A DNA stretch of 64,000 nt from Sideroxydans sp. (GCA_024636935.1 JAGXGC010000004.1:17287-81286); one strand, 5' to 3'; shown: positions 6,467-63,985, counted from the first letter of the stretch. Translations and numbers: made by a program. The notes: generated by a model not told the origin, from the sequence alone.

Positions 6467-6482
6467 CGTGCGTTGACGCACA
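6467..6482. promoter_or_regulatory. CRP-like palindrome CGTGC-N6-GCACA upstream of the HU/N-ATPase genes
   Basis: Seen in sequence; the same motif recurs in other intergenic regions. A second inverted repeat TGATCAC-N3-GTGATCA lies at 6484-6500. Confidence 0.6.
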
Positions 6483-6584
6483 TTGATCACATGGTGATCA
6501 GGTAGGCAGGCATCGCGACGACGTGACAGTGGAGCTCCAATTAGAGAGGAGGTAGTGGCGTTAGCCACTTAATGTCATGCTCGA

Positions 6585-7514
6585 TCAATCAACCTTAGCC
6601 TTACCCAAAACATGTTTGACTTTGGCAATCAGGGTGGCTTTATCGATTGGTTTCACCACGAAATCCGCAGCGCCAACTTTCATACTGTTACTAACGATCT
6701 GCCCGTCGCTTTTCCCGGTGATCATGATCACCGGAATCTTGGATAACTTTGGCTCGGCTTTCAAATTTCGCATGGTTTCTAGGCCGTCCATTTCCGGCAT
6801 CATGACATCCATAAGAATGAGGTCTGGCTGCGCCTTACTCATCATATTCAAGGCTTCACTACCGCTGGTGGCGAAAGTTAGATGATAGTTTTTACCCTCC
6901 AGCAGTTTGAGAATAAGTTTGTGCTGAAAGTCATCGTCATCCACAACCAAGATGTTCGGTCCGCTCAGCTTGGCCTGTTCTGCGATGTTCGATGTGTCGT
7001 TGTGCTTCGTCTTATCTACACGCAGTGTATCCAGCATCTTCTCCATTTCTGCCAAAGGACGCGAGTGCACGGTCAATTCGGCGACCCTGTCACCGACCGA
7101 GTTGAGGGAAGCCAATTCGCGCAGCGCATTGTGGACAGACATGTTCAAGCGGGGAGCGTCATAGGTCATAGGCCAGAACAGAATGTAATCGTCAAAGATA
7201 TCCTTCATGCATAACTCGTACGCACGCCTGACTTCGTCTTTGCTGCTCAGAATGATGGTGCGGTGCGGCTGCTGATGTATTTCCGGACATAAGCGGTACA
7301 TGCTCAGATAGTAGCGTTCAGATTTTTCCAGCGTATTGAATGCCAACACCAGCACATCGGGTCGATGCCGAACAAAATCAGCAACTGCATGATCTGCATC
7401 GGAGGAAATAAATACCTCATTGAATGCTTCGTGCAGGATCCCGCGCACCAGGCCAGCGTCGTCGATGATGTCCGTGGCAATTAATATCTTTGAAGATATA
7501 GCGGAAGTCGTCAT
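6585..7514 (-). CDS. Double receiver-domain response regulator (N-terminal pseudo-receiver)
   Basis: The C-terminal REC is intact (ILVVDDDD, DLILMDVMMPEMDG, FVVKP). The N-terminal REC-like domain has DVLVLAFN, with no phosphoacceptor Asp. Confidence 0.88.
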   Translation of the reverse strand: MTTSAISSKILIATDIIDDAGLVRGILHEAFNEVFISSDADHAVADFVRHRPDVLVLAFNTLEKSERYYLSMYRLCPEIHQQPHRTIILSSKDEVRRAYELCMKDIFDDYILFWPMTYDAPRLNMSVHNALRELASLNSVGDRVAELTVHSRPLAEMEKMLDTLRVDKTKHNDTSNIAEQAKLSGPNILVVDDDDFQHKLILKLLEGKNYHLTFATSGSEALNMMSKAQPDLILMDVMMPEMDGLETMRNLKAEPKLSKIPVIMITGKSDGQIVSNSMKVGAADFVVKPIDKATLIAKVKHVLGKAKVD

Positions 7515-7528
7515 GGTGAATTAATCCT

Positions 7529-8746
7529 TTATGGCGTGCGTTTTTTCGATTCGGCGTAAGACTGATTCCAAGTCTTTATCCATTCCGAAATATCGGCCCC
7601 CGGCATCGCTTTGGCAATGAAATAGCCTTGAGCAATATCGCATCCCCGATTTCGCACAAAATCCCAATCAGCCTGATCCTCGACCCCTTCCGCCACCACC
7701 TCCAACTTAAGTTGCTTGGCCAGATTGAGACACGAATCGAACATCGACCAAAGCTTCTCGTTAGTACAAGCACCATGCACAAAACTCTGATCGATCTTGA
7801 GTTCATCAAAAGGAATGTCGCGCAACTGCGCCAGAGAAGAATTACCAATACCAAAATCGTCGATCGACAGCTTGAAACGCTTCAAACGTAGACGGGTCAA
7901 AATTTCAAGCGGCGCGCGCAGATCGACCATCAGCCTTGATTCCGTCACTTCCAGCGACATCATCTGGGGCGGCACACCTGTCTTTGCTGAAAGTTCGACC
8001 ACAAAATCCACAAAATCCATCGAGGCCAGATCTTCCATCGAGATATTGACGGCAACGAGCAAACTCAGCCCGCTGTCCTGCCAGGCCTTGGCTTGAGCGA
8101 ACGCCTCAGTCAGCACTGTACGGGTCAAGTCGTTGATCAGACCACTCGTTTCAGCCAAGCTGATGAATTGGTCTGGGAACACGAGCCCATCCACGGGGTG
8201 CTGCCAACGCACCAGCGTTTCCACACCCACCACACGACCTGATGCCGCCAGCACCTTGGGCTGGTAATAATTGACCAGCTCGCCATTGTCGATAGCTGCG
8301 CGCAACTCTTCTGCGTCGTACACTTTTTTCTCGGTTTGCGGCAGTCTCTGTGTTGGCGCTGCCCACTTCCCGATCAACTCTGTCAATCCTCGCGGCGTGG
8401 CAGGTTTGTGCAAATGCCCCAGCACTGTAATGTTATGTGCCATTGCCAGTTTTTCGGCGGCCTGCTGCATACGCTCATCTTCACCGCTGACCAGAATGAG
8501 ACTACCGGTAAAGTTTCGCCCAACCAGATGGCGTACGAACTCAAGTCCGTCCATTTCCGGCATATTGAGATCCAGCAGAATCAGCTCGGGCGATTCCTCC
8601 GGTTTGCCGATCTGTGCCAACGCGGCAGCGCCACTCTCGCAAGTAGTAACCGAGGTACATCCCAAGTCGGCCAGAATGTGCCCGATCAGCTTGAGTATGA
8701 AAGGCTCATCATCGAGCACCAAAATCCTGATCGTTGAATTTTTCAT
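7529..8746 (-). CDS. REC-EAL c-di-GMP phosphodiesterase response regulator
   Basis: REC (LILLDLNMPEMDG) followed by EAL (YYQP...ETLVRW, VNIS, DDFGIG, LKID, AEGVE, QGYF). Confidence 0.93.
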   Translation of the reverse strand: MKNSTIRILVLDDEPFILKLIGHILADLGCTSVTTCESGAAALAQIGKPEESPELILLDLNMPEMDGLEFVRHLVGRNFTGSLILVSGEDERMQQAAEKLAMAHNITVLGHLHKPATPRGLTELIGKWAAPTQRLPQTEKKVYDAEELRAAIDNGELVNYYQPKVLAASGRVVGVETLVRWQHPVDGLVFPDQFISLAETSGLINDLTRTVLTEAFAQAKAWQDSGLSLLVAVNISMEDLASMDFVDFVVELSAKTGVPPQMMSLEVTESRLMVDLRAPLEILTRLRLKRFKLSIDDFGIGNSSLAQLRDIPFDELKIDQSFVHGACTNEKLWSMFDSCLNLAKQLKLEVVAEGVEDQADWDFVRNRGCDIAQGYFIAKAMPGADISEWIKTWNQSYAESKKRTP

Positions 8747-8811
8747 GTTCGTATCACCATTAAATCCGTCAGTTCGTTTATACGGGTGATGAATCGGTAT
8801 TCATCGTCGAT

Positions 8812-11800
8812 TCACGCCGCAGACCTTACACGGCGCTCATACTCATCAAGAAAATGCTCCACCTGTGCCAGCGCCTGCTCGAATCTGGGCAACAGCGCTG
8901 CTACCGCTGCACTATTTCCGAGCTTGCCGGCATTCTCTATCTCGGCACACGATTCACCCAGCGCCAGCGCCCCCACCGAGCGCGACGATGATTTGAGTTT
9001 GTGTGCCAACGCCCCGGCAGCCTCCGCCTGACCCGCCGCACAAGCGGCACGCAACTCGACGGCTATTTTTTTTGCACTGAGATGAAAGTCATGCAAGAAG
9101 TCGCGCAGGGTCGCGTCGTCGTCGCCGACTAATTGCTTTAGCACATTCACATCCACCGGCAAGGGGGATGAAGCTTGCAGTCTGTTGTCCATGGGGACAT
9201 CTCCTTCATTCTTATGCGCGCCACGAGGTAGCCACTTCTCCAGCATCGCTTTTAGGTCGACCAGTTGCACCGGCTTGCTCAGGTAATCATCCATGCCGAC
9301 TTCGCGGCAACGCTCGGCTTCTCCGCGCAGGACATTGGCGGTCAGGGCGATGATCGGGATATGCCGCGAGTCCCCCTCTGCGGCACGAATCGTGATGGTC
9401 AGTTCATAGCCGTCCATCTCCGGCATATGCAGGTCGGTGAGCAGTAGGCCGTAATCTCCGCTCCGCCACTGTTCCAGTGCCGCGCGCCCGTCATCGGCAA
9501 CTTCTGCGGCAAACCCGAGCAGCGCGAGCTGGCGCAGAATCACTTTCTGGTTGGTCTCGTTGTCTTCGGCGACCAGAATCAATCGCCCCTGTCGCCGCGC
9601 TTCCTCGCGCGACGGCTGTTTCACGGTCGCGACACTCCTGCCAGAGAAGGGCAGTTCCGCTTCTTCCTGCGCCCTCCCGGCGGCGATGGCCACCGCCTTG
9701 AGCAGAACCCTGCCGGTGAGCACATTACCATCCACCAGTACCAGATTGGCATTCTCCAAACGCGGCTCGCGACGCTGCCCACGCCCGATGACGACGAAGC
9801 GGGTTTCCTGTTCCGGGTGGGCGCGGACTGCGGCGCGCAGGTCATCCAACGGCGGCTCGCCACCTGCGGTATCGATAATCACGATGTATAGACCGGACGG
9901 GAAATCGGTCATCCATTCCTGTGCAGCCGCCAAATCCGCCAACCGTTTGACCACTGCTCCACCATGCACCAGATAGGCGGCGAGATCATCGGCCAGATAC
10001 TCGTGGCCACCCACTACGAGACAGGACAGGCCCTCAACCAGAGAGGATGTTTCGCTGATCCCGGTTTTTTTCGGCGCCAGCGCGAAGGGAAGGCGCACGC
10101 TGAACACCGTCCCCTTGCCCAATTCGCTTTGCACCGTTATCTCGCCGCCCATCAACTCAACCAGGTGGTGGACGATGGACAGCCCGAGCCCGGTGCCGCC
10201 AAAACGCCGGGTGGTGGATATGTCGGCCTGAGTGAAGGGGGTGAAAAGCCCCGACAATGTCTCTTTGTTCATCCCGATGCCGTTGTCGGTCACGCGAAAC
10301 TCCAGTGTTGCCTGTTCCGCTGTGCTCTCGACCAGCAGGGCGCGCACGGACACCCTGCCTGACGGCAGCTTGCCGGAAAACTTGATGGCGTTATTGGTCA
10401 GGTTGATCAGCACCTGGCGCAGGCGCAGCGTATCGCCCAGGACTTTCGCCGGAATTGCCGGATCGACGAATAGCGTGAGCTCTACCCCCTTCTTTTCGGC
10501 CATACTGTCCAGCATGCCACAAACGTTTTCCACCACATCGTCCACCGGCGTGGGCGCATATTCGATCTCCAGCTTGTCGGCTTCGATCTTGGAAAAGTCG
10601 AGAATGTCGTTGATGATGCCCAGCAGGGAATACGCCGATTCGCGGATCAGGTTGACCATTTCCACCTGGTAGCCATGTAGGCTGCTCTGGTGCAGCACGT
10701 CGATCATGCCGATCACGCCGTTCATCGGGGTGCGAATTTCATGGCTCATCGTGGCGAGAAAATCGGACTTGGCGCGGTTGGCGTGCTTGGCCTCAAGCAT
10801 GGCGGTTTCCAGATCGGCGGTGCGCGTTTTTACTTTTTCTTCCAGCTCCTCATTGAGTTTACGCAGCGCCTCCTCGGCCTGCTTAAGCTCGGTGATGTCG
10901 CGGCTTATCCCGAAGATGCCCACAACGGTCTTCTTGTCATCGCCGAACACCGGCCACTTGTTGGTGTTCACCCAGCGCTGCCTGCCCTGCTCGTCATAGT
11001 AGGGGTCAGTCTTGTTCAGCAGAGATTTGCCTTCCTTAAAGACCGGCAATTCTTCTTCGTAGTAAATGCGCGCCGTATCCTTGGGGAAAACCTCCTGGTC
11101 GTGCTTGCCTACCATGTCGCGCCAACTGGCATGGCCGGTGATATTCGCCAGCGTCTGGCTGCAAAAAATAAAACGGCTATTTTTGTCCTTGAAATAAATG
11201 AAATCGGATGTGTTTTCCAGTAAAACAACAAAATTCCGGTTCAATTCGAGAATTTTTTCCTCGGCCTGCTTGCGCCCGGTGATGTCGCGCATGATCCCCA
11301 CGGCATGCCAGCGGCCTTTCTCTTTGAGCGCCGAGATATATATTTCGACGGGGAACTCGCTGCCGTCTTTGCGTATGGCCGTAACTTCCCGTATCTTCCC
11401 GACCAGCGGACCTTCGCCAGTTTTTTGAAAATGGGCAAAGCCGCGCGCGGCATCGGCGTGATCGCGGGGCGGGGCAAGCAACTGGTGCATCTGCCGCCCG
11501 AGCGCCTCCTCCCGGCTGTACTGGAACATCCTTTGCGCTGCAGGGTTCCAGTCGGTAAGCCTGCCATGTTCGTCGATGATGGCAATGGCATCCTGGGCGG
11601 AGGCGTTGATCTGCCGGAAGCGTTCCTCACTCTGTAATTTCTGAAAGACCAGGGAATAGAGCGCAGGAGAAATGATCAGGGTAAGCAGGGTGGCATCAAG
11701 AAAGTTCCAGTAAACATCCGGGATGTTCATGGTGCTGAGAGCATCACCGATTACTACCATGATAAGAAGTTCGGCCACCAGAATGAGTAAGCCCAGGGCG

Positions 11801-11868
11801 ATTGTCAGCCCCAGTGGGGTATTGAACAGCCTCGTCAACTCCAGGTTTTTCATATCGGGTTCATCCAA
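8812..11868 (-). CDS. Hybrid histidine kinase HK1 (2TM-PAS-PAS-HisKA-HATPase-pseudoREC-REC-Hpt)
   Basis: [11 protein letters not shown]-box, N/G boxes, DLHMPEMDG receiver and [13 protein letters not shown] Hpt. The real start may be MKNLE at 11853. Confidence 0.95.
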   Translation of the reverse strand: MDEPDMKNLELTRLFNTPLGLTIALGLLILVAELLIMVVIGDALSTMNIPDVYWNFLDATLLTLIISPALYSLVFQKLQSEERFRQINASAQDAIAIIDEHGRLTDWNPAAQRMFQYSREEALGRQMHQLLAPPRDHADAARGFAHFQKTGEGPLVGKIREVTAIRKDGSEFPVEIYISALKEKGRWHAVGIMRDITGRKQAEEKILELNRNFVVLLENTSDFIYFKDKNSRFIFCSQTLANITGHASWRDMVGKHDQEVFPKDTARIYYEEELPVFKEGKSLLNKTDPYYDEQGRQRWVNTNKWPVFGDDKKTVVGIFGISRDITELKQAEEALRKLNEELEEKVKTRTADLETAMLEAKHANRAKSDFLATMSHEIRTPMNGVIGMIDVLHQSSLHGYQVEMVNLIRESAYSLLGIINDILDFSKIEADKLEIEYAPTPVDDVVENVCGMLDSMAEKKGVELTLFVDPAIPAKVLGDTLRLRQVLINLTNNAIKFSGKLPSGRVSVRALLVESTAEQATLEFRVTDNGIGMNKETLSGLFTPFTQADISTTRRFGGTGLGLSIVHHLVELMGGEITVQSELGKGTVFSVRLPFALAPKKTGISETSSLVEGLSCLVVGGHEYLADDLAAYLVHGGAVVKRLADLAAAQEWMTDFPSGLYIVIIDTAGGEPPLDDLRAAVRAHPEQETRFVVIGRGQRREPRLENANLVLVDGNVLTGRVLLKAVAIAAGRAQEEAELPFSGRSVATVKQPSREEARRQGRLILVAEDNETNQKVILRQLALLGFAAEVADDGRAALEQWRSGDYGLLLTDLHMPEMDGYELTITIRAAEGDSRHIPIIALTANVLRGEAERCREVGMDDYLSKPVQLVDLKAMLEKWLPRGAHKNEGDVPMDNRLQASSPLPVDVNVLKQLVGDDDATLRDFLHDFHLSAKKIAVELRAACAAGQAEAAGALAHKLKSSSRSVGALALGESCAEIENAGKLGNSAAVAALLPRFEQALAQVEHFLDEYERRVRSAA

Positions 11869-14800
11869 TTAATACCCATCGAGAAAATGTTCAACATTCG
11901 TCAGCTCCTGTTCAAACCGGGGCAGCAGCACTGCCAGCGTTCCGTCCTCGCCCGCCTTGCCTGCCTGTTCCATTGCGGCGCACAGCTCGCCCAGCGCCAG
12001 CGCGCCCACCGAGCGGGCCGAGGATTTTAGCTTGTGCGCCGCCGCGCCGACGGTCGCCATATTACCTTGAGCGTAGGCCGCACGCAGTTCCGTTACGATC
12101 TTGTCGGCGCTGCTGTGGAAGTCGTGCAGGAACTCGCGGATGATCGTCTCATCGTCGCCCACCAGTGCCTTGAGTACGTTTACGTCAACCGGGACAGGTG
12201 ACACAACGGGCAGTTGTAGGTCGGGATTTATCCCGACATGCCTGTCCTGAGCCTGTCGAAGCGGTCGGGTTGAAACCCGACCTACGCTTAATGTCGATTC
12301 GCTCGGCATTGGATCGGAAGCAACAACCGGCAACCATTTATCCAGCATCGCTTTTAGGCTGACCAGTTGCACTGGCTTGCTCAGGTAATCATCCATGCCG
12401 ACTTCTCGGCAATGTGCGGCTTCGCCTTTGAGTGCATTGGCGGTGAAGGCGATGATGGGCATACGTGTCTTGCCGGTTTCGGCGGAACGGATGGAGGTGG
12501 TCAGCTCGTAGCCGTCCATCTCCGGCATGTGCAGGTCGGTGATCAGGATGCCGTAATCGCCGCTCTGCCAAAGCGCCAGCGCTTCGCGACCATTACCGGC
12601 GATATCTGCGGTTTGCCCGAGCAGCTTGAGTTGTTGCAGGACGACTTTTTGGTTGATCTCGTTGTCTTCGGCGACCAGGATCAGGCTGCCTTGTCGGCGC
12701 GCTTCTTCGCGGGACAACGGCGCGAGTGTTGCTTTGACATGGTTGGACAGGTCTTTCAGCTCAGGCGGTTTGACCCAGCCGGCAGCAACGGCCACCGCCC
12801 TCAGCAGCGCATTGCGGGTCAATACATTGCCATCCACCAACACCAGATCGGCATCTTCCAAACGCAGTTCCCGTCGCTGCCCGCGCCGGATGACGATGAA
12901 GCGAATTTTATGTTCCGGGTGTGCGCGGGCTGTGGCACGCAGTTCATCCAGCGGCGGGTTGGCGGCTGCGGTGTCAATGAGCACGATGCACAGGCCGGGA
13001 GGATGCTGCAATATCCATTCCTTGATAGTACCCAAGTCTGTCACCCGCTCGACCAGCGCACCCGAATGTTTAAGATAGACGGCAAGATCATCGGCAAGCC
13101 CGTCTGCGCCCACTACCAGGCAGGGCAGGCCGGTGACCTGTTGATTGGGCTGAATTCCTGAGCCTGTCGAAGCGGCCTGAACTGCATTCACTAACAATTT
13201 GAAAGGCAGGTGCACAGTGAATGTCGAGCCTTTGCCCGGTTCGCTCTGCACGGTGATTTCACCGCCCATGATATTTGCCAACTTGCGCGAGATGGCCAGC
13301 CCCAACCCGGAGCCGCCGAAATGCCGGGTGGTGGAAGAGTCCGCTTGGGAAAAAGGTGTGAACAATCGCGCCTGAGTTTCTTCATCCATGCCAATGCCGT
13401 TGTCGGCCACACGAAACTCCAGCATCACCTGCTCCGGCGTGCTTTCAGCCAGCCGCGTACGCACCGATACCTTACCTTGCCCCTGCTGTCCGCCGGAAAA
13501 TTTGATGGCGTTGCTGGTCAGGTTGACCAGTATCTGGCGCAGCCGTCCCGGATCACCCATGACTGTTGCGGGAATGGCCGGGTCGGTGAACAGCAGCAGC
13601 TCCACTCCTTTCTTTTCGGCCATCTGATCCAAGGTTCCACATGCCCCCTCCACCACGTCGGCGACAGACGTGGGTACGCTGTCAATCTGGAGCTTGTCAG
13701 CCTCGATCTTGGAGAAGTCGAGAATGTCGTCAACGATAGCCAGCAAGGCAAACGCCGAGTCGTGGATGATGTTGGACATCTCCATCTGTGCGCCATTCAG
13801 GTCGCTCTGCTGCAATACATCCACCATGCCGATCACGCCGTTCATCGGGGTGCGTATCTCGTGGCTCATGGTGGCAAGGAATTCAGACTTGGCACGGTTG
13901 GCATGCTCTGCTTCGATCCGGGCGCGCTCCAGATCGGCGGTGCGCGCCAGCACTTTGTTTTCCAGCTCTGCGTTGAGATGGCGCAGCGACTCCCCCGTAC
14001 GTTTCTGATCTTCGATCATACTCAACAGCGCATCGGCCATCTGGTTGAGCGCATGGTCGATACGACCAAGATCATCGGTCGCAGAATCGCCGCCCGTCAC
14101 GAGGCGCGTCTTCAGGTCGCCGGCCGCGATGCGCGCGGAGAATTCCACGGTGCGACTGACCGAGCGCGTTATGCCGCGCCACACCGCCCATGAGATCAGC
14201 AGCATGAGCACGATAGCGGCGGCGCTGCCGATGACGAAGGTGATCGTCGCCCGCATCATGGTTTTGTTTATGTGATCGAATTCTTCGTCAGAAACGACCT
14301 TGGCGGCGTGGTGCAGCGTATCCAGCAGCGATTCGATCTCATCGGCGGTGACGGATAACTGCGCCTGGCTGGTGTCGATCTTGTGTTTGACCTCGGCATA
14401 CTCGTCGAACAGCGCGATGTAATCGGTGATCAGTACGGTCATGGCTGCGCGCTGTTTGGCCGATAGTCCCGGCGTCTGGCGCAGATGTTGCCCGAAATCC
14501 TGTTCGACTTGGCGCACTTTCTTGATGTCCTGCGTCTGGTTGCGCAGCAGAAAATCTTTTTCCGCGCGACGCAGGCTAAGCAGGTCTATCATCAGCGGCA
14601 TGGCGGCGGGCGGAATGAGCCGCTCGATGGCGTGGGCGCGCTGGCGAAAACGGCCTTCAAGCCCCGTATCCACGTGACCGAGGCGGCCATACAGCTCAAC
14701 CAGTTCGATAAATATAGCCTCGTGCCGACGGATCTGCCGCCCGATTTCATCTGTGCCCGCCATGGCCTGCCGCTCGTGCTCCATCGTGGGCAGGCGGTGA

Positions 14801-15168
14801 AGTTCAGCTACAAGCGCGATGATGTTGGCAACTTCGTTGCGCACCAGACCGAGGTAGCGCGAGCGCGCCGCCGGGTAACTCAGCTCTTGCCAGGACAGTA
14901 TGAAATCCTTCTCATAACCGCGCGCCTCATCCATGCCCTCATCTATATTCAGGATGGCTGCATCCATTGGTATATGCACGTCCTGAATATTCCGCAGTTG
15001 GGAAGCAAGCTCCGATGAGAGGATATTGGCCATCGCCGCGAGCAGGACAAGAAGCGCGATACCGGTGCCCAGCCCGAGCATGAGCTGGGCGCGCAGCCCC
15101 AGTCGGCGCACCATACCGCGTGGCGACGGTTCAATTCTGGCAGTGGATGGAATCATGGACAAGATCAA
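11869..15168 (-). CDS. Hybrid histidine kinase HK2 (TM-helical periplasmic sensor-TM-HAMP-HisKA-HATPase-pseudoREC-REC-Hpt)
   Basis: Two TM helices, [14 protein letters not shown] sensor motif, [14 protein letters not shown], receiver and Hpt ([13 protein letters not shown]). Confidence 0.95.
12216..12285. repeat. Inverted GTAG-type REP doublet (REPIN-like) with a nested second repeat, inside the HK2 coding sequence
   Basis: GTAG-GTCGGG-atttat-CCCGAC at 12216-12237; its inverted partner GTCGGG-ttgaaa-CCCGAC-CTAC at 12264-12285; spacer cctgtcctgagcctgtcgaagc. Confidence 0.85.
13156..13175. repeat. Second copy of the 20 bp tcctgagcctgtcgaagcgg element within HK2
   Basis: Identical to 12245-12264. 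Confidence 0.8.
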
Positions 15169-18100
15169 TACCCCTCAAGAAAATGTGCAACGCTCGCCAG
15201 CTCCTGTTCGAACTTTGGCAACAGCGCCGCCAGCGCTTTATTATTGCCCGCCTTGCCCGCCTGTTCCATTCCCGCGCACAACTCACCCAGCGCCATCGCC
15301 CCCACCGAGCGCGACGATGATTTGAGCTTGTGCGCCAACGCACCGGCAGTGGCTGCCTGACCCGACGCGCAGGCGGTGCGCAGTTCCGCCGCTATCTTGG
15401 CCGCGCTGAGGCGGAAGTCGTGCAGGAACTCGCGGATCGCTGCCTCGTCATCACCGATCAACGCCTTGAGCACATTCACATCCACAGGCAAGGGGGATGA
15501 AGCTTGCAGTCTGTTAACCATGGGGACATCTCCTTCATTCTCATGCGAGCCACGAGGTAGCCATTTATCCAGCATCGCTTTTAGGCTGACCAGTTGCACC
15601 GGCTTACTCAGGTAATCATCCATGCCGACTTCTCGGCAATGTGCGGCTTCACCTTTGAGTGCATTGGCAGTGAAGGCGATGATGGGAATACGTGTCTTGC
15701 CGGTTTCGGCGGAACGGATGGAGGTGGTCAGCTCGTAGCCGTCCATCTCCGGCATGTGCAGGTCGGTGATCAGGATGCCGTAATCGCCGCTCTGCCACAG
15801 CTCCAGCGCATCGCGACCATTACCGACGATATCTGCGGTTTGCCCGAGCAGCTTGAGTTGTTGCAGGACGACTTTTTGGTTGATCTCGTTGTCTTCGGCG
15901 ACCAGGATCAGGCTGCCTTGTTGGCGCGCTTCTTCGCGGGACAACGGCGTCAATACCGTTTTGACTTCACCAGTTACTGCTTGCCAGTCAGACACCTTAA
16001 CCCTGCCGGAAGCGACCGCCACCGCCTTCAGCAAAACCTTGCGAGAAAGCAAGTTGCCATCTACCAGCACCAGATCATCTTCCTCTACACGCGGCTTGCG
16101 GCGCTGCCCGCGCCGGATGACGACAAAGTGTGTTTGCTGTGCAGGGTGGGCGCGCGCTGCGGCGCGCAGCTGATCCAGCGGCAAGTTGGCGGCGGCGGTG
16201 TCGACCACCACGATGCACATGCCGGGTGGACGCTTGGCTATCCATTCCTTGACTGCCGCTAATTCCGCCTGCCGCTCGACCTTTGCACCCGCATGCACAA
16301 GATAGGCGCCGATATCATCGGCAAGACCCTCGCTACCTCCTGCCACCAGACAGTTCAGTCCGGCAACCAGACTGGGAGTGGCTTCCGGCTGCTCCGGCAC
16401 CCGTTGGAAAGCCAGGCGCACAATGAACACCGAGCCTTTGCCCGGTTCACTCTGTACTGAAATATCGCCGCCCTTGATATTTACCAGCTGCCGCGAGATA
16501 GCCAAGCCCAGTCCGGTACCGCCATAGGTGCGGGTTGTGGATGAGTTGGCCTGGGAAAAGGGCGTGAACAACCGCGCCTGCGTTGCAGCGTCCATACCGA
16601 TGCCGTTATCGGTCACGCGAAACTCCAGCTTCACCTGTTCTGCTGTGCTTTCTGTCGGCAAGGTGCGAACCGACACCTTGCCCTGCCTCGTTTGCCCGCT
16701 GGAAAACTTGACCGCGTTATTGGTCAGGTTGACCAGTATCTGGCGCAAGCGCCCGGGATCGCCCATGACTTGCGCAGGAATGCCGGGGTCAGTGAACAGC
16801 GTCAGCTCCACATCTTTGTGCAAGGCGATGTGGCTCATGGTTTCGCATGCCGACTCCACCACATCGGCAATAGACATGGGCACGCTTTCGATCTGCAGCT
16901 TGCCCGCCTCGATCTTGGAGAAGTCGAGAATGTCGTCGATGATGGACAACAAGGCGAACGCCGAATCGTGGATGATGTTGGCCATCTCCGTCTGCGCACC
17001 ATTCAAACTGCTCTGCTGCAACACATCCACCATGCCGATCACACCGTTCATCGGCGTGCGTATCTCATGGCTCATGGCGGCAAGGAATTCAGACTTGGCG
17101 CGGTTGGCCTTCTCGGCTTTGAGCATGGCCTGCTCCATGGCAAGCGTGATGCGCTTTCGTTCGCGGATGTCGCGCAGAATGCCGGTGAAATAACGCGCCC
17201 CCTGTACAAGATATTCGCTGATAGAGAGCTCCATCGGGATGAGTTCGCCGCTTTTGCTTTTTCCTACGATCTCCCGCCCGATGCCGATGATGCGCGTCTC
17301 ACCGGTACGCATATGGCGATCCAGGTAGCTGTCATGGGCGGAATGGTCGGGTTCTAGCATGAGCATGGAAACGTTTTCCCCGATCACCTCATCGTGGCTA
17401 TAGCCGAGTATCTTCTCCACCGCCGGGTTGGCAGAAAGGATGATGCCTTGGTCGTTTATGGTGATCACGCAATCCATCATGTGATCGACCACAGAGCGGA
17501 TCTCTTCTTCCTTTTTACTTATGTCCAGATTGGTTTGTTCCAGCGCAGCAGTGCGCGACGATACTTTTTGTTCGAGCTCTTCATTGAGCTGGCGCAGCGA
17601 CTCCTCAGCCTGCTTGCGGTCTTCGATCACGCTCAATAATGCGCGCCGCGATTGATTGGCGGCGGCTAGCAGCTCTTGCGCCAATTTTTCAGATGCCAGG
17701 ACTTCCTCGTTGCGAATCTGTTCCGTCAAGTCGGTTGCCACCAGACAGAAAACTGCGGATATCTCATGGATGAACAGATCGTTCACGGACAGCGAAACTG
17801 GGACCCGCGCTCCGTTTCCTGTGACAAGCTCAAGCTGAACGCGGCGCTTCCCGCCTGATCCATTGTCCAGCAACGGTTGAAGGATTTTCCGGCTGTCCGG
17901 TGCAATAAAGGTAGAGAACGTGGCGCCGATCACTTTTTCGAGTGGCGTCTTGAGTATCTCTGCAAAGCTCTGGTTGGCGTACAAAATGACGCCCTCCGCA
18001 GATAGGGTCAGCGCACCTTCGCTCATGTTTTCGATCAGCAACCGGTAAGACTGGTCGGTGCCTTTGAGCGTAAAAATCTGCGCGCCAGCCGCCCCAGTGA

Positions 18101-37944: not shown

Positions 37945-37959
37945 ATGTTCTCCTTTTAA

Positions 37960-54938: not shown

Positions 54939-54942
54939 ATGT

Positions 54943-56763
54943 ATGCCAGCCATGAGCGAATCCCATCCATCTGATGTGCTAAGAAAAATGGCGGAGGAGA
55001 AGCTCGCTCATGAAAATGACGATTCCTCACCACCCCGCTCTGCCGAGGAATTGTTGCACGAACTTCAAGTGCATCAAATCGAACTGGAGATGCAGAACGA
55101 GGAATTGCGTCATGCGCAGATAGCGCTGGAGATCGCTCGAGATCGCTATGTCGATCTTTATGAGTTCGCACCAGTCGGCTATCTCACCCTTTCGCACGAT
55201 TCAAAAATCAACTCCATCAATCTGAATGGCTCGTCCATGCTGGGCGAAGATCGGAAAAAACTACTCCATCGTAGTTTTTCGAATTTGGTCGCACCGGAAC
55301 ATCATGATTGCTGGCTAGGGTTTTTTTCCGATGCACTGGAAGCAATAGATAAGCAGACTTGTGAACTCACTCTGCAGCACGCAGATGGCAAACGTATCGA
55401 AGTGCGTCTGGATTGCTTGCGCATCAAAACAGATGATGCCGATACAGAATTACGCATCGCACTCACAGACGTATCAGAACAGAAGCGTTTAGCGCATGTA
55501 TTGGAGGATAACAACGCCGACCTCTCCAGAGCCAAATCGCTGGCGGACAAAGCGAATCTCGCCAAATCTGATTTCATCTCCAGCATGAGTCATGAGCTGC
55601 GCAGTCCGCTCAATGCGATATTAGGTTTCGCGCAATTGCTGGAGGCGGGCAATCCTTTGCCCACGCCTTCGCAGAAGGGCCGCATCGAACAGATCATCCA
55701 AGCGGGGTGGTATCTGTTGGGGCTGATCAACGAGATCCTTGACCTCGCCATGATCGAGTCGGGTCGGCACCCCATGAAGATGGAGAACATCTCATTGTCC
55801 GAGGTGTTGCTCGACTGCCAGTCCATGATCGAGCCACAAGCGAAGAAGAAAGGGATTCACATCGATTTTGCGAAGGTGGACGAGCAGTGCTTCGTCTATG
55901 CCGACCGCATTCGCCTGAAGCAGATCCTGATCAACCTGGTGACCAACGCCATCAAATACAACCGACCTGGCGGCGCGGTCAATGTGGCGGTGCAAACAAA
56001 CAGCGACGGGCGTGTGCACATCGGCGTACAGGATAGCGGCGCAGGTCTGTCTGCGGAAAATCTCAAGCAACTGTTTCAGCCTTTCAATCGATTGGGCCAG
56101 CAGACAGGCAGCGAGGAAGGTTCCGGCATCGGACTGGTGCTGAGCAAGCGACTGGTTGAATTGATGGGCGGCCGCATCGGCGTGGAAAGTGTCGTTGGCG
56201 TGGGAAGTGTGTTCTGGATAGAAGTTCACTTGACCGACTCGGCTGAGAGCGATGTCAGCGAGTTTGCTTTGCTCAAACCAGTGCATGATGTTGTTCAAGC
56301 GGCTATCCAAGCCGCCTTCCGCGCCACACCGGAACCGTTTCCACTGATGGTGGCGCCACGCACTGTGCTTTACGTGGAAGACAACCACGCGAACATGATG
56401 CTGATGGAACAGATACTTGAGCGTCAATCGGGTATCAAACTACTCAAGGCAGGCAACGGCGCGAGCGGCATCGCACTGGCGCGCATCCATGTGCCAGATG
56501 TGATTCTGATGGACATCAATCTGCCCGGCATCAGCGGCGTTCAAGCATTGCGCATCTTGCGTGCAGATCCCGCCACTGCCCACATCCCGGTAATCGCGAT
56601 CAGCGCCAACGCGATGCAGCGCGATATCGAAAACGGGCTTGAGGCCGGATTCATGGGTTACATCACCAAACCGATCAAGGTGACCGAATTCATGGAAGTA
56701 TTAGAGACGGCATTGCAACTTTCACAGAAGATTAAAGACGCGAAGAAAGAGGCGGACAAATGA
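54943..56763 (+). CDS. PAS hybrid histidine kinase with receiver
   Basis: LHELQVHQIELEMQNEEL N-terminal coil, PAS, SHELRSPLNAILG, NAIKYN, GIGLVLS and DINLPG. Confidence 0.94.
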   Translation: MPAMSESHPSDVLRKMAEEKLAHENDDSSPPRSAEELLHELQVHQIELEMQNEELRHAQIALEIARDRYVDLYEFAPVGYLTLSHDSKINSINLNGSSMLGEDRKKLLHRSFSNLVAPEHHDCWLGFFSDALEAIDKQTCELTLQHADGKRIEVRLDCLRIKTDDADTELRIALTDVSEQKRLAHVLEDNNADLSRAKSLADKANLAKSDFISSMSHELRSPLNAILGFAQLLEAGNPLPTPSQKGRIEQIIQAGWYLLGLINEILDLAMIESGRHPMKMENISLSEVLLDCQSMIEPQAKKKGIHIDFAKVDEQCFVYADRIRLKQILINLVTNAIKYNRPGGAVNVAVQTNSDGRVHIGVQDSGAGLSAENLKQLFQPFNRLGQQTGSEEGSGIGLVLSKRLVELMGGRIGVESVVGVGSVFWIEVHLTDSAESDVSEFALLKPVHDVVQAAIQAAFRATPEPFPLMVAPRTVLYVEDNHANMMLMEQILERQSGIKLLKAGNGASGIALARIHVPDVILMDINLPGISGVQALRILRADPATAHIPVIAISANAMQRDIENGLEAGFMGYITKPIKVTEFMEVLETALQLSQKIKDAKKEADK

Positions 56764-57713
56764 TCAGCGCTCAGGACATCTTGAACGCAAAGATTCTGAT
56801 CGTTGATGATCGGCAGACCAATGTGACATTGCTTGAGGATGTGTTGCACGAAGAAGGATACCTTCACGTAACGGCTACATTTGATCCCAGTGCTGTATGT
56901 GGGCTTCATCACGCCAATAATTTCGATCTGATCCTTCTGGATATTGAGATGCCAGGCATGGACGGCTTCGAAGTGATGAAAGCGCTACAAGAGATCAACT
57001 GCCACGGCTACGCCCCGATCTTGGTGATCACGGCACATGCGGAATACAAGCTCAAGGCGCTGGCATCCGGCGCAAAGGATTTCGTCTCACAGCCGTTAAA
57101 TATCACCGAAGTCCGGACACGCATCCGCAATATGCTGGAGGTGCGCCTGCTCTTCATGCAACTTGAGCAATCCAATCAGACACTGGGATATCTTGCGTTG
57201 CATGATGGCCTAACAGGTCTACCGAACAGACGGCTGATGTTTGACCGTCTATCGTCGGCCATCTCTCATGCGTACAGAAATGCAAACATGATGGCGGTTT
57301 TATATCTGGATATGGATATGTTCAAGGAGGTCAATGACTGCTTTGGGCACGATGCGGGTGATGTATTGTTGACGGAAATGGGTAGGCGTTTAGAAGCCGC
57401 AGTGCGTCAAGAAGATACGGTGGCACGACTGGGCGGAGATGAATTTGTGCTCGTACTGCCCGAGTTGAAGGAAATAACGGATATAGAGATTTTGATCCCC
57501 AAGTTGATTGCAGCCGTAGCGCGCCCCTGCAACATCTCCGGTACTGACGTAAGCATCACGGCCAGCATCGGGGTCAGCATCTACCCCATGCATGGGGAGT
57601 CGCCTGAAATATTGATAAAGCGCGCCGATATGGCCTTATATAGATCCAAGCATTTGGGTAAGAATAAATATTGCATCGCGTCCGATAATGATTCCGAACA
57701 ATATGGAACGTGA
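56760..57713 (+). CDS. REC-GGDEF diguanylate cyclase
   Basis: DLILLDIEMPGMDG receiver; RLGGDEF. Confidence 0.94.
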   Translation: MISAQDILNAKILIVDDRQTNVTLLEDVLHEEGYLHVTATFDPSAVCGLHHANNFDLILLDIEMPGMDGFEVMKALQEINCHGYAPILVITAHAEYKLKALASGAKDFVSQPLNITEVRTRIRNMLEVRLLFMQLEQSNQTLGYLALHDGLTGLPNRRLMFDRLSSAISHAYRNANMMAVLYLDMDMFKEVNDCFGHDAGDVLLTEMGRRLEAAVRQEDTVARLGGDEFVLVLPELKEITDIEILIPKLIAAVARPCNISGTDVSITASIGVSIYPMHGESPEILIKRADMALYRSKHLGKNKYCIASDNDSEQYGT

Positions 57714-57771
57714 TCAAAGCAGTTCATGCTCTAGGGACGTCGTTTGAACTAATAGCAGGTTGGAGGAATAA

Positions 57772-58620
57772 ATGATAAATAACAAAGAAATATTGAAGGC
57801 TTCGATCCTGATTGTGGATGACCAGCAAGCCAATGTGATGCTTCTGCAAGAGCTGCTGAGTGATACCGGTTATAACAATGTGACTTCGACCACAGATCCG
57901 CATACGGTCTGCGAAATGCATCGTTCCAATCACTACGACCTGATCCTGCTCGATCTTGAAATGCCTGGCAAAGATGGCTTTGAAGTGATGGACGATTTGA
58001 AAACGATGCAGATCGATGACTATATCCCCATCTTGGTGATCACCGCACAACCCGATCACAAACTGCGCGCCCTTTCTTCCGGCGCCAAGGACTTCATTGC
58101 CAAGCCTTTAGACTTGGTCGAGGTTAAGACGCGTATCCATAACATGCTGGAAGTACGCTTGTTGTACAAAAAACTTGCGGTTTACAACAAGGAACTGGAG
58201 CAGAAAGTCGAGATTCGCACGGCGGAACTGCGAGAAAGCGAAACACGTTTCCGCCGTTTGGCCGAGTTGTCTTCAGACTGGTATTGGGAGCAGGACGAGA
58301 ACGGTCATTTCACCAAGGTGTATGGCCCTGCACTTGAGATGCTGGGCGTTCAGGAAGGTGATGCAACAGCGCAAAAAAGAGAAGACCAAGGCGCCTATTG
58401 GAGCGAGTCCAAACAGAAGATGCTGGATGAATTCATCTCCGCCAGAAAACCTTTCATCGATTTCGTGTATGACCGGAAAAAACCTGACGGCACGATTCAA
58501 CATTTGATGGTGAGCGGCGAGCCGATGTTCGACCCGACGGGCTCTTTCATCGGATATCGGGGTATCGGCAAGGATGTGACAGAGTCGATCAATCTAAAAA
58601 ATACACAGCCTCACTCTTGA
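57772..58620 (+). CDS. REC-PAS response regulator without output domain
   Basis: Receiver paralogous to that of 56760..57713, followed by a SSDWYWEQD PAS domain. Confidence 0.88.
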   Translation: MINNKEILKASILIVDDQQANVMLLQELLSDTGYNNVTSTTDPHTVCEMHRSNHYDLILLDLEMPGKDGFEVMDDLKTMQIDDYIPILVITAQPDHKLRALSSGAKDFIAKPLDLVEVKTRIHNMLEVRLLYKKLAVYNKELEQKVEIRTAELRESETRFRRLAELSSDWYWEQDENGHFTKVYGPALEMLGVQEGDATAQKREDQGAYWSESKQKMLDEFISARKPFIDFVYDRKKPDGTIQHLMVSGEPMFDPTGSFIGYRGIGKDVTESINLKNTQPHS

Positions 58621-60439: not shown

Positions 60440-60856
60440 TTATTTCTTGACGACCAGGTTGTTGTTCACCGAACTGACGCCGGCTACTGCACCGGACAAA
60501 CCGTTTGCCATATCACTGTTCGCTTGTGTATCGACAGAACCAGACAAGGTCACGACACCTTTGACTGTCTTAACACTGATCTGCAAAGTCTTCAGGCCTG
60601 GCTCGGCAAGGATGGCCGCTTTGATCTTGGTGGTGATCGCTGCGTCTTCCATGGCGACAGTGGTTTTATCGCCCTCTTTGGATACTGCATCCACGACGTC
60701 GTTACTCATCTTCTCCATCTTGTTTCCCGCCGCGTCCATCTTTTGATCGATGGTCTTGCCTGCTGATTCGGCAGGACCCGGCTTGTCACAAGCGGCTAGG
60801 CCTGCGATAACGAACAGCGACAGCAGGACTGTATTTATTTTGTGCGAGACTTTCAT
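60440..60856 (-). CDS. BON domain lipoprotein (OsmY-like)
   Basis: Lipobox LAAC; DAAITTKIKAAIL...GVVTLSGSV...VNNNL. Confidence 0.92.
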   Translation of the reverse strand: MKVSHKINTVLLSLFVIAGLAACDKPGPAESAGKTIDQKMDAAGNKMEKMSNDVVDAVSKEGDKTTVAMEDAAITTKIKAAILAEPGLKTLQISVKTVKGVVTLSGSVDTQANSDMANGLSGAVAGVSSVNNNLVVKK

Positions 60857-60936
60857 TTGATAACCTCTCTAATGTATTCAATTTATGCAAAGGATTTGTA
60901 GCGCATCGATACCGGCATCTCAGCCGGGCCCGATGT

Positions 60937-62433
60937 TTATTTCTGTTTCTTATACTTCAGCACGATGTTGACTCTGCGATTCTCCTGCTGGCCTTCCAGA
61001 GAAGTGCCGTAAGAGACGCGGCGGCTCTGACCATAGGCTGAGGTGGAGAGACGCGAGCGCTCAATGCCTCCTGCTTCCGCCAGATAGTTCACCACGGCCG
61101 TCGCACGTGCCTGCGAGATCACCATTGACTGTTCAGGTGTTAGATGAGACTTATCTCGTCCCAGCCCGACCATTTTTCCAGCATGTCCTTCAACGGTGGC
61201 CGTGACCGTTGGATTCGCCTTCAGGAAATTCGCCACTTCACGCAAGCTGTCGTAATACTTCGGTTGCACAGTATGTTTGTTGGGGTCGAATTCCAACTCC
61301 AGCGCCATCGTGCCTCTGGCTGGCATCACCTTGAGATCCGCCACATCGCTTACACAGGCGATGACAGCACCGATACGGCGATTTGCCTGCTGACCTTCGA
61401 TAGTACGGTTGTCTGCGATCGGGAGCGTTTCCCCGTAGCCCACTGCAGACAAACGGGAAGCGTCTATCTTCAACTCATTGACCAGATAGTTCACCACGGA
61501 CTCGGCTCGATTTTGCGATAGCTTCTGGTTGAACTCAGCCTTGCCGACATTATCCGTATGACCTTCGATGACAGCAGTGGTTTTTGGATACTTGCGCATG
61601 AATGTCCCCACGACCGCAAGCTTTTCCAGATCGTCACGCTGGATGGCGTCCTGCTTGATCTCAAATTGCAGATCGAGGATGCTGCAGTATTCGGCCATCT
61701 TGACCTTGACGGGAACGATGATGAACACAGGGGCTGGCGCAGCTTCAGCTACGCGTTCCGGTGGAGGACTCTTTTTACCGAACTGATAGACCAATCCAAG
61801 AGACAGCATATTGATGTCGCCCATATTGCCGACAGCATCATCTATACGGTAACGCTCTCCTTCAAGGCGAGCCGCCCATTCCGGCGTAAAGTCATATTGC
61901 AGTCCAACACCCACCTTATATTTTGCCGCGCTTTTGCTTGGGCTGGGATTCGTTGGAGTTGGGACCGCACCGGTAGTCCTGAAGTTGTCCTTGGCTTGCG
62001 CATACTGCAGGCCCAGCCGTGCAAAGACAGAGTATTTATCAGCGATGGGATACATTCCCACTGCATCGAGATTCACACCTCTGAGTTTGATGTTTCCGGT
62101 CAGAGTGCCCGCTGGTGAGGTCGTCGCTGTGTAGCCGAACTCACCCAGATCATAATAGCCGCCTTCCAGTGCGAAATATTTGTTGAACTTGTAACCACCA
62201 AACAGTTTGAATGCTGTCTTTCGGTCACGGTCAGCTATTGATGTCGTACTAAGACCAGATCTGAGCAACTGTGCGCGGATGTCGGCATCGTCTATTTTAG
62301 AATTCGACTGCCCTGCATTGATGCCGATGAGCCATCCTTCTTCTACCGCCATCGCGGACATGCTGCTCATCACTGCCCATCCTGCAAATCCGATGGCACC
62401 CAATGCCTTTGCTACTCGTTTTGTATTTTTCAT
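60937..62433 (-). CDS. OmpA-family outer membrane protein with a beta-barrel and two OmpA_C domains
   Basis: Signal peptide, barrel strands (GGYKFNKYFALEGGY, GVGLQYDF), then two OmpA_C repeats (EGHTD...LSQNRA and EGHAG...ISQARA). Confidence 0.9.
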   Translation of the reverse strand: MKNTKRVAKALGAIGFAGWAVMSSMSAMAVEEGWLIGINAGQSNSKIDDADIRAQLLRSGLSTTSIADRDRKTAFKLFGGYKFNKYFALEGGYYDLGEFGYTATTSPAGTLTGNIKLRGVNLDAVGMYPIADKYSVFARLGLQYAQAKDNFRTTGAVPTPTNPSPSKSAAKYKVGVGLQYDFTPEWAARLEGERYRIDDAVGNMGDINMLSLGLVYQFGKKSPPPERVAEAAPAPVFIIVPVKVKMAEYCSILDLQFEIKQDAIQRDDLEKLAVVGTFMRKYPKTTAVIEGHTDNVGKAEFNQKLSQNRAESVVNYLVNELKIDASRLSAVGYGETLPIADNRTIEGQQANRRIGAVIACVSDVADLKVMPARGTMALELEFDPNKHTVQPKYYDSLREVANFLKANPTVTATVEGHAGKMVGLGRDKSHLTPEQSMVISQARATAVVNYLAEAGGIERSRLSTSAYGQSRRVSYGTSLEGQQENRRVNIVLKYKKQK

Positions 62434-62537
62434 ACTGTTCCCCACAAAAATTTGTTGCTGTTCATCGAATATTGCTACTTCAAATCAGCTTGGGGCGCCT
62501 CCCTGCTCAGGAGGGCTCCCATCAATACATTTAGTTC

Positions 62538-63842
62538 TTAAGGTACGGTGATAGTGGTGACTGAAGGAGAGGCCGCGCCCGTCAATACGATCGCACCGGC
62601 TCCACCTGCACTTGCACCACCCAATACTCGACCATTCACCGTTGAGCCATCCAGAACCGTCGCATCGCGACCGGCCAAGATGTTTCCTTCCCAACTTGTT
62701 CCATGTCCGATGGTGATATCGCGCCCGACCACGAACCAGATGTTTCTGGCTTGAGCTTGATTGGCCAGCACCACTCGTGTCGGAAGGAGCAACGTGCCCG
62801 AGTCGGTAAAGTCACCTGCACCACCTACCGTGCCCACCTTGATCATAAAGATCGCATTGGCATCGTTCTGTGCATCAAAGGTGACCACGCCATTGGCTGC
62901 CAATCCGAGATTGGCCTCGTTATAGACACCTGGCAGCAGCGTCTTTCCAGACAGTTGCCCGCTCAGGAAGCCAGTGGCAAAAGTATCAACTTTGTTAAAG
63001 CCTTCCGTCCATGCCGCAGTCAATGCGCTCTTCACGGCAGCGGCCGTTGCGCCCGCATCAGAATCGGTAGGGAAACGAATCGATCCATTCACCGTCAATC
63101 CCAAGGCACTTGCCGGTTTGGATTCAACCAGACAGTTAGCCGGCGTACCGGTGGCATCGGAACAAGTCCCCGTTGGCGACAAAGCGACATTACCGTTGAC
63201 CACGGTGACACCGGTTGAAGTCATTCCGGCACCTGCTGCGATTCCATAGGTCTCTGCAGCACCAAGGTTGAGGGCGAGCGCTACTGCGGCTGCTGCAGTC
63301 TTGAAATTCCATGCGTAACTACAAGAGAGCGGAACACTACCTGTAGCGATCGAGCTGGTCGCTGCAGTCGTGATGATCGCTACATAAGTAGTATTGGCCA
63401 CCAACGGTGCGGAGGTTGTAAAGGTCGCCGTCTTGTTGGTGCCGTTCATTGCAACCGTTCCCGCAACGATAGTCCCTGTTCCGACCGTCATGTTTTTGAG
63501 GGTGAACGTACTCAATGCACCTGCTGTGGCGGAGATGATCGTCGCCGGATCCATGGCCAGATCGAAGGTGGCCGTGATGGCCTTAAAGCCCGTACCGACC
63601 GAAACGTTCTGACTTGCATTGCTCGGACTTGATGAAGTCACCGTAGGAATGGTCGCGCTGCTTGCAACGGTACAGACCCCGCCGGGGATGATGGCACCTG
63701 CTGGGGCACCCAAGATGACCCCGTCGCCGCCTCCACCTAGGATGGAAGACAGCCCGCCATTGCCACAACCTGCTGCAGAGACTGTCAGCAGTATCGCTGT
63801 GAGCCACATCAGCAATTTGGTACTGATATTGAACTTGTTCAT
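62538..63842 (-). CDS. Lipoprotein with an Ig-like domain and a DUF3494 ice-binding-like domain
   Basis: Lipobox AAGC; Ig-like segment (ITATFDLAMDPATI...YAWNFKT); LGAAETYGIAAG, LLPGVY, FDAQNDANAIFMIKV, ARNIWFVVG and WEGNILA. Confidence 0.85.
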   Translation of the reverse strand: MNKFNISTKLLMWLTAILLTVSAAGCGNGGLSSILGGGGDGVILGAPAGAIIPGGVCTVASSATIPTVTSSSPSNASQNVSVGTGFKAITATFDLAMDPATIISATAGALSTFTLKNMTVGTGTIVAGTVAMNGTNKTATFTTSAPLVANTTYVAIITTAATSSIATGSVPLSCSYAWNFKTAAAAVALALNLGAAETYGIAAGAGMTSTGVTVVNGNVALSPTGTCSDATGTPANCLVESKPASALGLTVNGSIRFPTDSDAGATAAAVKSALTAAWTEGFNKVDTFATGFLSGQLSGKTLLPGVYNEANLGLAANGVVTFDAQNDANAIFMIKVGTVGGAGDFTDSGTLLLPTRVVLANQAQARNIWFVVGRDITIGHGTSWEGNILAGRDATVLDGSTVNGRVLGGASAGGAGAIVLTGAASPSVTTITVP

Positions 63843-63969
63843 TTGCTTCTCCTTTTATCGATTCCATATCAAACTGAGCCTGACTTGCCCGTGCTCGATT
63901 GCCGATCAATCTGAACCCGGTAAATTCCTGATATTGATAGTCGTTATCCTCCATCTCGCCATTTCGCTC

Positions 63970-63985
63970 TGTTCACTAGCGCACA
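63970..63985. promoter_or_regulatory. CRP-like palindrome TGTTC-N6-GCACA upstream of the DUF3494/OmpA genes
   Basis: Seen ~130 bp upstream of 63842. Confidence 0.55.

Follow-up and report, generated by a model that had tools for sequence, protein, structure and literature searches.

A palindromic box associated with a Crp/Fnr-family regulator and shared by promoters of a 64-kb region of Sideroxydans sp.

The 64-kilobase (kb) stretch of DNA from Sideroxydans sp. considered here (GCA_024636935.1, JAGXGC010000004.1:17287-81286; called the window in this text) contains a palindromic box of 16-20 base pairs (bp) that is shared by nine of its promoters. Judged by comparison across genomes, these boxes are quite likely to be binding sites for dimers of a Crp/Fnr-family protein encoded in the same stretch (51168-51923), which would activate its own operon and the neighbouring ones. 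The window corresponds to C18:17287-81286 of a 2.7-megabase (Mb), 36-contig assembly obtained from a cold-spring metagenome, and makes up 2.4% of that genome. An initial annotation of the window had read the boxes as a single autoregulated regulon covering the region. In that proposal, the tie between the box and the regulator's subfamily, the box in front of the regulator gene, the intergenic placement and the conservation in related islands all stood up to analysis. Autoregulation is suggested because the regulator gene has its own box, while the restriction of the regulon to the island did not hold.

The box in the window and in the genome

Eight 16-mers had been described under the motif TGTGC-N6-GCACA. 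All eight match the sequence exactly (6467, 24630, 27327, 29556, 35634, 49309, 51015 and 63970), and all eight lie, as claimed, in non-coding DNA 5' of operons on a Pfam-supported gene map. The motif itself required correction. A 22-nucleotide (nt) weight matrix (symmetrised, 23.9 bits), built solely from DNA 5' of orthologs of the regulator in other genomes, reads T-[A/C]-T-G-T-[G 53%, A, T]-C-G-n-T-A-n-C-G-n-A-C-A-[T/G]-A. The box is thus TGTnCG-nTAn-CGnACA with T[A/C] and [T/G]A flanks, that is, the 20-bp palindrome T[A/C]TGTnCGnTAnCGnACA[T/G]A. Within the core, conservation is lowest at the second G of TGTGC (53% G), and the CG and the central TA are conserved features absent from the earlier pattern, to which the 27327 box is the sole exact match among the eight sites. 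The remark that seven of the eight spacers start with G was true, because that G is part of the conserved CG of the box. The bases T[A/C] before and [T/G]A after the box are common to the eight window sites, and flank similarity among the sites ends beyond 22 nt. A Gibbs sampler given no prior pattern, run on 97 homolog upstream regions with the Sideroxydans genome itself excluded, recovered the box as TATGTGCGGTAGCGAACAGA. The de novo motif and the symmetrical matrix agree on a palindromic operator of about 16 bp.

When scored by the matrix, the eight sites reach 16.8-25.1 bits and all rank within the genome's top 22, the crp box being first. The downstream operon lies on the - strand for every site except 51015, which faces the + strand crp gene. 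The boxes and the operons behind them are as follows.

51015..51030: CGTGCGCTGCCGCACA, 25.1 bits, the best match genome-wide, 5' of the regulator gene
6467..6482: 18.2 bits, 119 nt 5' of an HU-like gene pair (6347..5194, - strand), with a -10-like TAAAGT at 6445-6440
24630..24645: 20.6 bits, 135 nt 5' of an 18-kb operon (24494..6585, - strand) for a 10-PAS protein, KaiC, KaiB, three hybrid kinases, REC-EAL and REC
27327..27342: 17.0 bits, 154 nt 5' of a dCache-PAS-GGDEF gene (27172..25289)
29556..29571: 21.5 bits, 254 nt 5' of genes for TsdB/TsdA-like dihaem cytochromes (29301..27830), with a -10-like AATAAT at 29534-29529
35634..35649: 16.8 bits, one good half-site plus flanks, 86 nt 5' of an operon (35547..30172) for DUF6629, BrkB/YihY, phosphoketolase and transaldolase
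49309..49324: 17.0 bits, 54 nt 5' of an operon (49254..35860) for cyclic beta-1,2-glucan synthase, acetate kinase, catalase and a P-type ATPase, with a -10-like TAAGGT at 49287-49282
63970..63985: 18.8 bits, 127 nt 5' of genes for Big_5/ice-binding-like, OmpA and BON-domain proteins (63842..60440)
28406..28421: a ninth matrix match, 15.9 bits, within the tsdA-like coding region, with a good half-site only

The 28406 match is probably fortuitous and non-functional, and its operon already has a box. Operons with a box in front span nearly all of the region from about 5.2 to 63.8 kb. The 6467 box, which sits between a REC gene (6585..7514, - strand) and an HU-like gene (6042..6347, - strand), had been assigned to HU and an N-ATPase. 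The HU pair does follow the box, but the N-ATPase is an uncertain target, being separated from the HU genes by a 541-nt gap that holds no box.

That the sites are functionless, either as chance matches or as copies of a dispersed repeat, is a practically negligible possibility. What speaks for it is that the loose pattern TGTGC-N6-GCACA, with at most two mismatches, is rarer in the window than in shuffled sequences (28 matches against 46 expected), and so has no overall enrichment. With at most one mismatch, five of its eight matches fall in non-coding DNA, which is about 9% of the window, and the matches in coding DNA (15329, 41915 and 43965) each score below 8 bits by the matrix. The intergenic bias expected of operators was borne out, with eight of the nine window matches of at least 12 bits being intergenic (binomial P=4e-8). 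In the whole genome, 17 matches of at least 14 bits are intergenic and nine are 'coding' on a crude map of open reading frames (ORFs), giving a 20-fold higher intergenic density; several of the nine fall in spurious ORFs or at gene starts. Nine of these 26 matches lie within the 2.4% of the genome that the window represents (P=5e-9). Chance is opposed by the intergenic restriction, the concentration in the window, the independent ranking by the matrix, the de novo recovery and the conservation across genera, and a dispersed repeat by the dissimilarity of the flanks beyond 22 nt.

The boxes are not confined to one region as had been claimed. Three more stand just right of the window (C18 82947, 84981 and 85027), and further clusters occur on contigs C14 and C11. 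Outside the window, boxes precede genes for CsbD, a CHASE3-PAS sensor, HiPIP, an alpha/beta hydrolase, AsmA, a PagP-like protein and a second CheB. At C14:46666-57081, strong boxes precede the first four of these and others, with two boxes in the CsbD/CHASE3 divergent region, and at C11:32517-32661 they precede a stand-alone CheB.

The Crp-like regulator and its link to the box

The relation between box and regulator was assessed at 100 loci encoding homologs of the Crp-like protein (P0001) with 46-100% identity; the 80 named among them (70-84%) include Gallionella, Sideroxydans, Sideroxyarcus, Methylobacter, Oxalobacteraceae, Sulfuriferula and others. The pattern TGTGCG-N4-CGCACA, with at most two mismatches, occurs within 450 nt upstream of 60 of the 100 homologs, whereas about 1.7 are expected (P about 1e-78), and most of these boxes stand 110-170 nt ahead of the start codon. 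When six orthologous upstream regions are aligned, no block other than the box is conserved, and its flanks diverge. It is present 5' of crp in beta- and gammaproteobacterial genera whose neighbouring genes otherwise differ. The 1.27 Mb surrounding 80 orthologs contain 0.176 boxes per kb and the Sideroxydans genome itself 0.0096 per kb, and in G027 and G033 boxes cluster beside crp paralogs. Within the genus, the ortholog is present in five of 24 genomes. The pattern TGTNCGNTANCGNACA, with at most one mismatch, has 11-27 matches in the five genomes with the ortholog and 6-11 in 13 without it (Mann-Whitney P=0.001), while a reversed-pattern control gives 2-7. These comparisons support the assignment of the box to the RREG(I/V)TE subfamily of Crp proteins.

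Conservation in orthologous islands was confirmed for the three closest carriers, G022, G004 and G013. There, boxes precede genes for CheBR, Crp, a dCache-GGDEF homolog, a CHASE3-PAS sensor, OmpA, BON and Big_5/ice-binding proteins; homologs of the regulator's operon are box-associated in all three, and the homolog of the GGDEF gene 27172..25289 has a box in G022. Among the 80 loci, the families most often associated with a box are crp (46), PAS/kinase sensors (13), DUF4398 (9), REC-EAL (5), BON (4) and Big_5/ice-binding (4), and OmpA, CsbD, CheBR, transaldolase and KaiC are also represented.

A further explanation is that some unrelated DNA-binding protein recognises the box, or that the box is a promoter element of an alternative sigma factor, and that its proximity to crp reflects hitch-hiking in a mobile stress island. 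The patchy occurrence of the island, with the ortholog in so few genomes of the genus, fits this view in that co-inheritance could mimic co-occurrence, and a gene for half a sigma factor is linked to a paralog of the regulator on contig C26. Nevertheless, a 16-bp dyad with outer TGT/ACA is the hallmark geometry of the CRP/NtcA/FNR family, elements of sigma factors are not palindromic, and the box is kept 5' of crp amid differing neighbours. Further, the Crp-like protein provides the sole sequence-specific DNA-binding domain found among the window genes, and no other DNA-binding domain recurs in the 80 loci. An unrelated reader of the box is thus very improbable.

The regulator gene and the rest of its operon are located as follows.

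51168..51923, + strand: Crp/Fnr-family regulator of 251 amino acids, with a Pfam HTH_Crp_2 match of 56.1 bits (cut-off 27)
51933..58620, + strand: rest of the regulator operon, encoding a CheB-CheR-PAS fusion, a PAS hybrid kinase, REC-GGDEF and REC-PAS

The regulator is assigned to the Crp/Fnr superfamily by its Crp-type helix-turn-helix (HTH) and, in the predicted structure, by an N-terminal barrel and a dimerisation helix. The AF2 model (pLDDT 76) has the barrel strands and a helix at 124-149, and it resembles MtbCRP, GlxR, NtcA and FNR with TM scores of 0.65-0.75 at 16-22% identity (Foldseek E about 1e-10). The best sequence match in the PDB covers the HTH only (E=9e-6). Pfam cNMP_binding reaches 20.3 bits, below its cut-off of 27.5, and none of the NCBIfam models fits the protein. 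The REGITE recognition helix named in the initial annotation was verified by an alignment that is ungapped over CRP 169-206, in which S179-R180-E181-T182-V183-G184-R185 of CRP becomes R-R-E-G-I-T-E. The other three Crp/Fnr proteins of the genome have the helices E-T-V-S-R (a separate FNR-like protein on C13), R-E-M-V-S-R and R-E-V-V-A-K.

Three known identities for the regulator were considered and set aside. CRP proper does not fit in its cAMP-contacting Arg82/Ser83 loop, and relative to the CRP site TGTGA-N6-TCACA the box carries C instead of A and its second G is degenerate; the Arg that contacts the cAMP phosphate is missing, with E-R-S-A of CRP replaced by T-P-S-L-A in the regulator and by T-P-S-R-A in the family consensus. 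An oxygen sensor of the FNR/Anr type is not indicated, as no Cys precedes residue 146, so that there is no N-terminal Cys cluster for a [4Fe-4S] centre, and the box is not TTGAT-N4-ATCAA. The NtcA model TIGR03697 gives 27.9 bits against a cut-off of 244.95. The residues Cys146, Cys157, Cys223, Cys225, His149 and His150 are invariant in 28 homologs. They are spread over three elements, namely the last part of the dimerisation helix, the helix that follows it and the first part of an additional C-terminal helix (CECY). These four Cys and two His could form a metal or redox site.

Helix variants were also tallied against the presence of the box (rows L004, L007, L011, L013-L016 and L020 being uninformative). 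None of six homologs with Val at the CRP-185 position has the box, against 35 of 39 GVRREGVTEA proteins. This correlation is the sole hint that the A-to-C change in the box may stem from the Glu at CRP-185, a plausible idea; it would fit just as well if the Val-185 variants did not regulate their own genes. No alternative palindrome was found 5' of the six Val-185 variants, where there is just a conserved non-palindromic promoter region, and they therefore provide no test of helix-to-box specificity. In the upstream 330 nt, these Val-185 paralogs (L054, L056, L060, L068, L071 and L081) share …ATGTGTTA…CACGGTC.TCGTTCACCGTC…CCTAGTTGACGACTGGAA… and have no box.

The genome contains a second paralog (C26:6532-7383), which is 66% identical to the window protein, has the helix RREGITEV and probably shares the sites. 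It is conceivable, if unlikely, that the boxes are read mainly or only by this paralog and that the window Crp is just a target or has diverged. The paralog, too, has the R-R-E-G-I-T-E residues; its gene lacks a box and could therefore be an upstream, constitutively made master; and C26 carries one 22-bit box. Across genomes, however, the box travels with the orthologs of the window gene and clusters around them, and the autoregulated arrangement is found in G004, G013 and G022. Binding by both paralogs is the simplest expectation, so that a role for the C26 protein alone is more a refinement than a rival of binding by the window Crp. Directly upstream of the paralog gene, and overlapping it, is a gene for a 171-amino-acid 'half sigma factor' (C26:7307-7819, - strand), which has only regions 1.2-2 of an RpoS/RpoD-like protein, with the motif YATLCIYHRIE.

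The subfamily is large, with at least 8000 protein clusters at E<=1e-20 and 581 relatives confirmed in species-representative genomes of Beta- and Gammaproteobacteria. The databases offer generic names only for it, and neither a curated family nor a closely related solved structure, and no description of the box or of the subfamily was found in the literature.

Promoter geometry and a divergent candidate small RNA

Toward the gene, a -10-like hexamer starts 22 nt after the 16-mer (a 21-nt gap). Of the sites at orthologs, 64% have A at +23 (P=1e-9) and 55% have T at +27 (P=2e-6); the window promoters have A at +23 in nine of nine cases and T at +27 in seven of nine. The crp box is flanked by such hexamers on both sides, CATACT (+) toward crp and GATAGT (-) toward a candidate small RNA (sRNA).

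51052..51057, + strand: -10-like hexamer CATACT facing crp, with 21 nt between it and the box; L021 and L086 conserve ACATACTT
50905..50993, - strand: candidate sRNA of about 75-90 nt, divergent from crp and served by the same 51015 box

A sigma-70 scan of 50700-51200 returned no promoter and no -35 hexamer. When the hexamer is placed at -12 to -7, the box centre falls at -41.5, and the 5' untranslated regions would be 21-221 nt long. Class II activators of the CRP/FNR type bind at a site centred near -41.5, contact RNA polymerase and replace the -35 element. Since a box centred at -41.5 without a -35 hexamer is this arrangement, activation is favoured, and the box promoters would be class II, activator-dependent promoters.

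The same geometry bears on the suggestion that the protein, when bound to its boxes, blocks the -35 region and so works as a repressor or a dual regulator. The box spans -52 to -31 of the predicted start, where a repressor would block RNA polymerase. On the other hand, no -35 hexamer was found and the sigma-70 scan was empty. The 21-nt phasing to the -10 element is strict across dozens of genera, whereas a repressor needs no fixed helical register, and the targets are typical inducible stress genes. Repression is accordingly held to be quite improbable.

The candidate sRNA has a -10-like GATAGT (50993-50988), a hairpin with the loop CCUCCCCUUU, and a strong Rho-independent terminator at 50942-50912 with U7 behind it (z=-7); the loop is C-rich and resembles an anti-Shine-Dalgarno sequence. 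Homologs adjoin boxes in Sideroxydans/Sideroxyarcus genomes, at L021 (5917-5994) and L035 (4235-4306), where the stem changes are compensatory and the loop is invariant. Beyond its own genome, the candidate is carried only by these two, and a BLAST search of 120 sampled family genomes found nothing outside its own genome. An Rfam search of the crp upstream region gave no family, just a sub-threshold Hrs10 match on the opposite strand. The succession of box, -10 hexamer, hairpin and terminator at 50905-51030 (- strand) has the make-up of a complete small transcription unit, and the unit is regarded as a candidate sRNA. Its start lies at the predicted distance from the box, which lends indirect support to the start-site spacing.

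Proposed mechanism, related systems and significance

In the proposed mechanism, dimers of the regulator would dock on the box with CRP geometry, using the outer TGT/ACA of the 16-bp core, and specificity would come from the inner CG and the central TA. The C26 paralog, having the same recognition helix, would probably bind the boxes too. At about -41.5 the box would stand in for the -35 element, and the bound regulator would touch RNA polymerase in the class II manner. The regulator would activate its own operon, forming a positive loop, and would also drive the divergent sRNA and eight other operons of the window. Candidate inputs are the CheBR-PAS, kinase and REC proteins encoded in the same operon, or the four invariant cysteines. 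The putative targets comprise KaiBC with PAS/kinase signalling, cyclic di-GMP (c-di-GMP) enzymes, HU-like proteins, cytochromes, phosphoketolase/transaldolase, cyclic glucan synthase, acetate kinase, catalase, a P-type ATPase and envelope proteins of the OmpA, BON and ice-binding-like types. This make-up suggests a general-stress or dormancy programme. No RpoS was found in this genome above the NCBIfam cut-off.

Several observations weigh against activation of these operons by the window protein. About 40% of the homologs have no box within 450 nt, mostly those of Methylobacter-type loci and the Val-185 variants, and the C26 paralog is likewise without its own box; autoregulation is therefore not universal. 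Genomes of the genus that lack the regulator keep a modest excess of the pattern (about eight matches against about four for the reversed control), and single weak sites are therefore no proof. In the window, the 35634 and 49309 sites each depend on one good half-site. The two possible binders, the window Crp and the C26 paralog, are indistinguishable. The match of the -10-like hexamers is weak, T at -7 is missing from two window promoters, and a box overlapping the -35 region could equally repress. The only metatranscriptome of the source study is tiny and holds none of this DNA.

A more far-reaching version of the proposal, which is put forward tentatively and is itself rather doubtful, makes the regulator the master switch of an RpoS-independent stress or dormancy programme in iron-oxidising Gallionellaceae. 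The KaiBC timer, c-di-GMP turnover, an energy shunt (glucan, phosphoketolase and acetate kinase) and envelope remodelling would be joined in one positive feedback loop. An sRNA arm would act by pairing of the CCUCCCC loop with ribosome-binding sites. The signal would arrive in an unusual way, through the four Cys and two His at the hinge and the C-terminal helix or through the CheB-CheR-PAS methylation module, and not through a cyclic nucleotide.

In mechanism, the nearest model is E. coli CRP acting at galP1 and other class II promoters. The regulator shares with it the fold, the 16-bp dyad with outer TGT/ACA and the equivalents of R180 and E181, and would likewise bind as a dimer at about -41.5. 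The boxes differ in that the inner half-site is nCG rather than GA, the centre is TA, and the most conserved G:C of the CRP site (position 7) is degenerate here. The proteins differ in the replacement of Arg185 by Glu and of Ser179 by Arg, in the absence of Arg82 and in the extra C-terminal helix with CxC, and are less than 20% identical. NtcA of cyanobacteria is among the best sequence and structure matches to the regulator and has the same outer TGT/ACA, but its site differs at the inner positions. The NtcA site is TGTA-N8-TACA, and NtcA typically acts from -41.5. SdrP of Thermus thermophilus is an effector-independent CRP-family activator of stationary-phase and stress genes that acts from class II positions. 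Similarly, the present regulator appears to need no cyclic nucleotide and would activate stress genes from class II positions; phylum and box are different.

The closest biological analogue is the lxa locus of the betaproteobacterium Burkholderia cenocepacia, a low-oxygen-activated stress and persistence locus of roughly 50 genes (PMC3721108). A palindromic motif occurs at 17 intergenic points inside that locus and at a few loci elsewhere, and the locus encodes CRP-family regulators, two-component systems, a cation ATPase and stress proteins (PMC3721108). The lxa motif, however, is FNR/Anr-like (TGA-N6-TCA) and its regulators are described as Anr-related (PMC3721108), whereas the box described here is TGTnCG-N4-CGnACA and the regulator has no FNR-type Cys cluster. 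The box is well supported by the comparative evidence, and with its regulon it would represent a new specificity variant within the known Crp/Fnr kind.

With the operator, the promoter geometry and the targets defined, dozens of 'hypothetical stress islands' become a regulon that can be tested. A candidate explanation is thereby gained for the organisation of a general stress response in bacteria lacking RpoS, and a non-cyanobacterial KaiBC system is connected with a defined input at the level of transcription. Further, because the box differs from that of CRP at positions read by the changed helix residues, the system is a natural test case for the evolution of specificity in the CRP fold.

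A few minor features of the window complete the gene map. The + strand ORFs at 6577..7214 are taken as spurious, as they have no Pfam match and overlap the Pfam-supported REC gene 6585..7514 (- strand). No tRNA genes that could mark a border of the island occur within the window. Two small + strand ORFs between cgs and crp (49537-50706) match no Pfam family, apart from one weak DUF5677 match, and are the only genes from 5 to 64 kb without their own box-promoter. Finally, a 108-amino-acid ORF at 29702-30028, 3' of the transaldolase operon, matches just the last 50 positions of the GGDEF domain and is probably a gene remnant.

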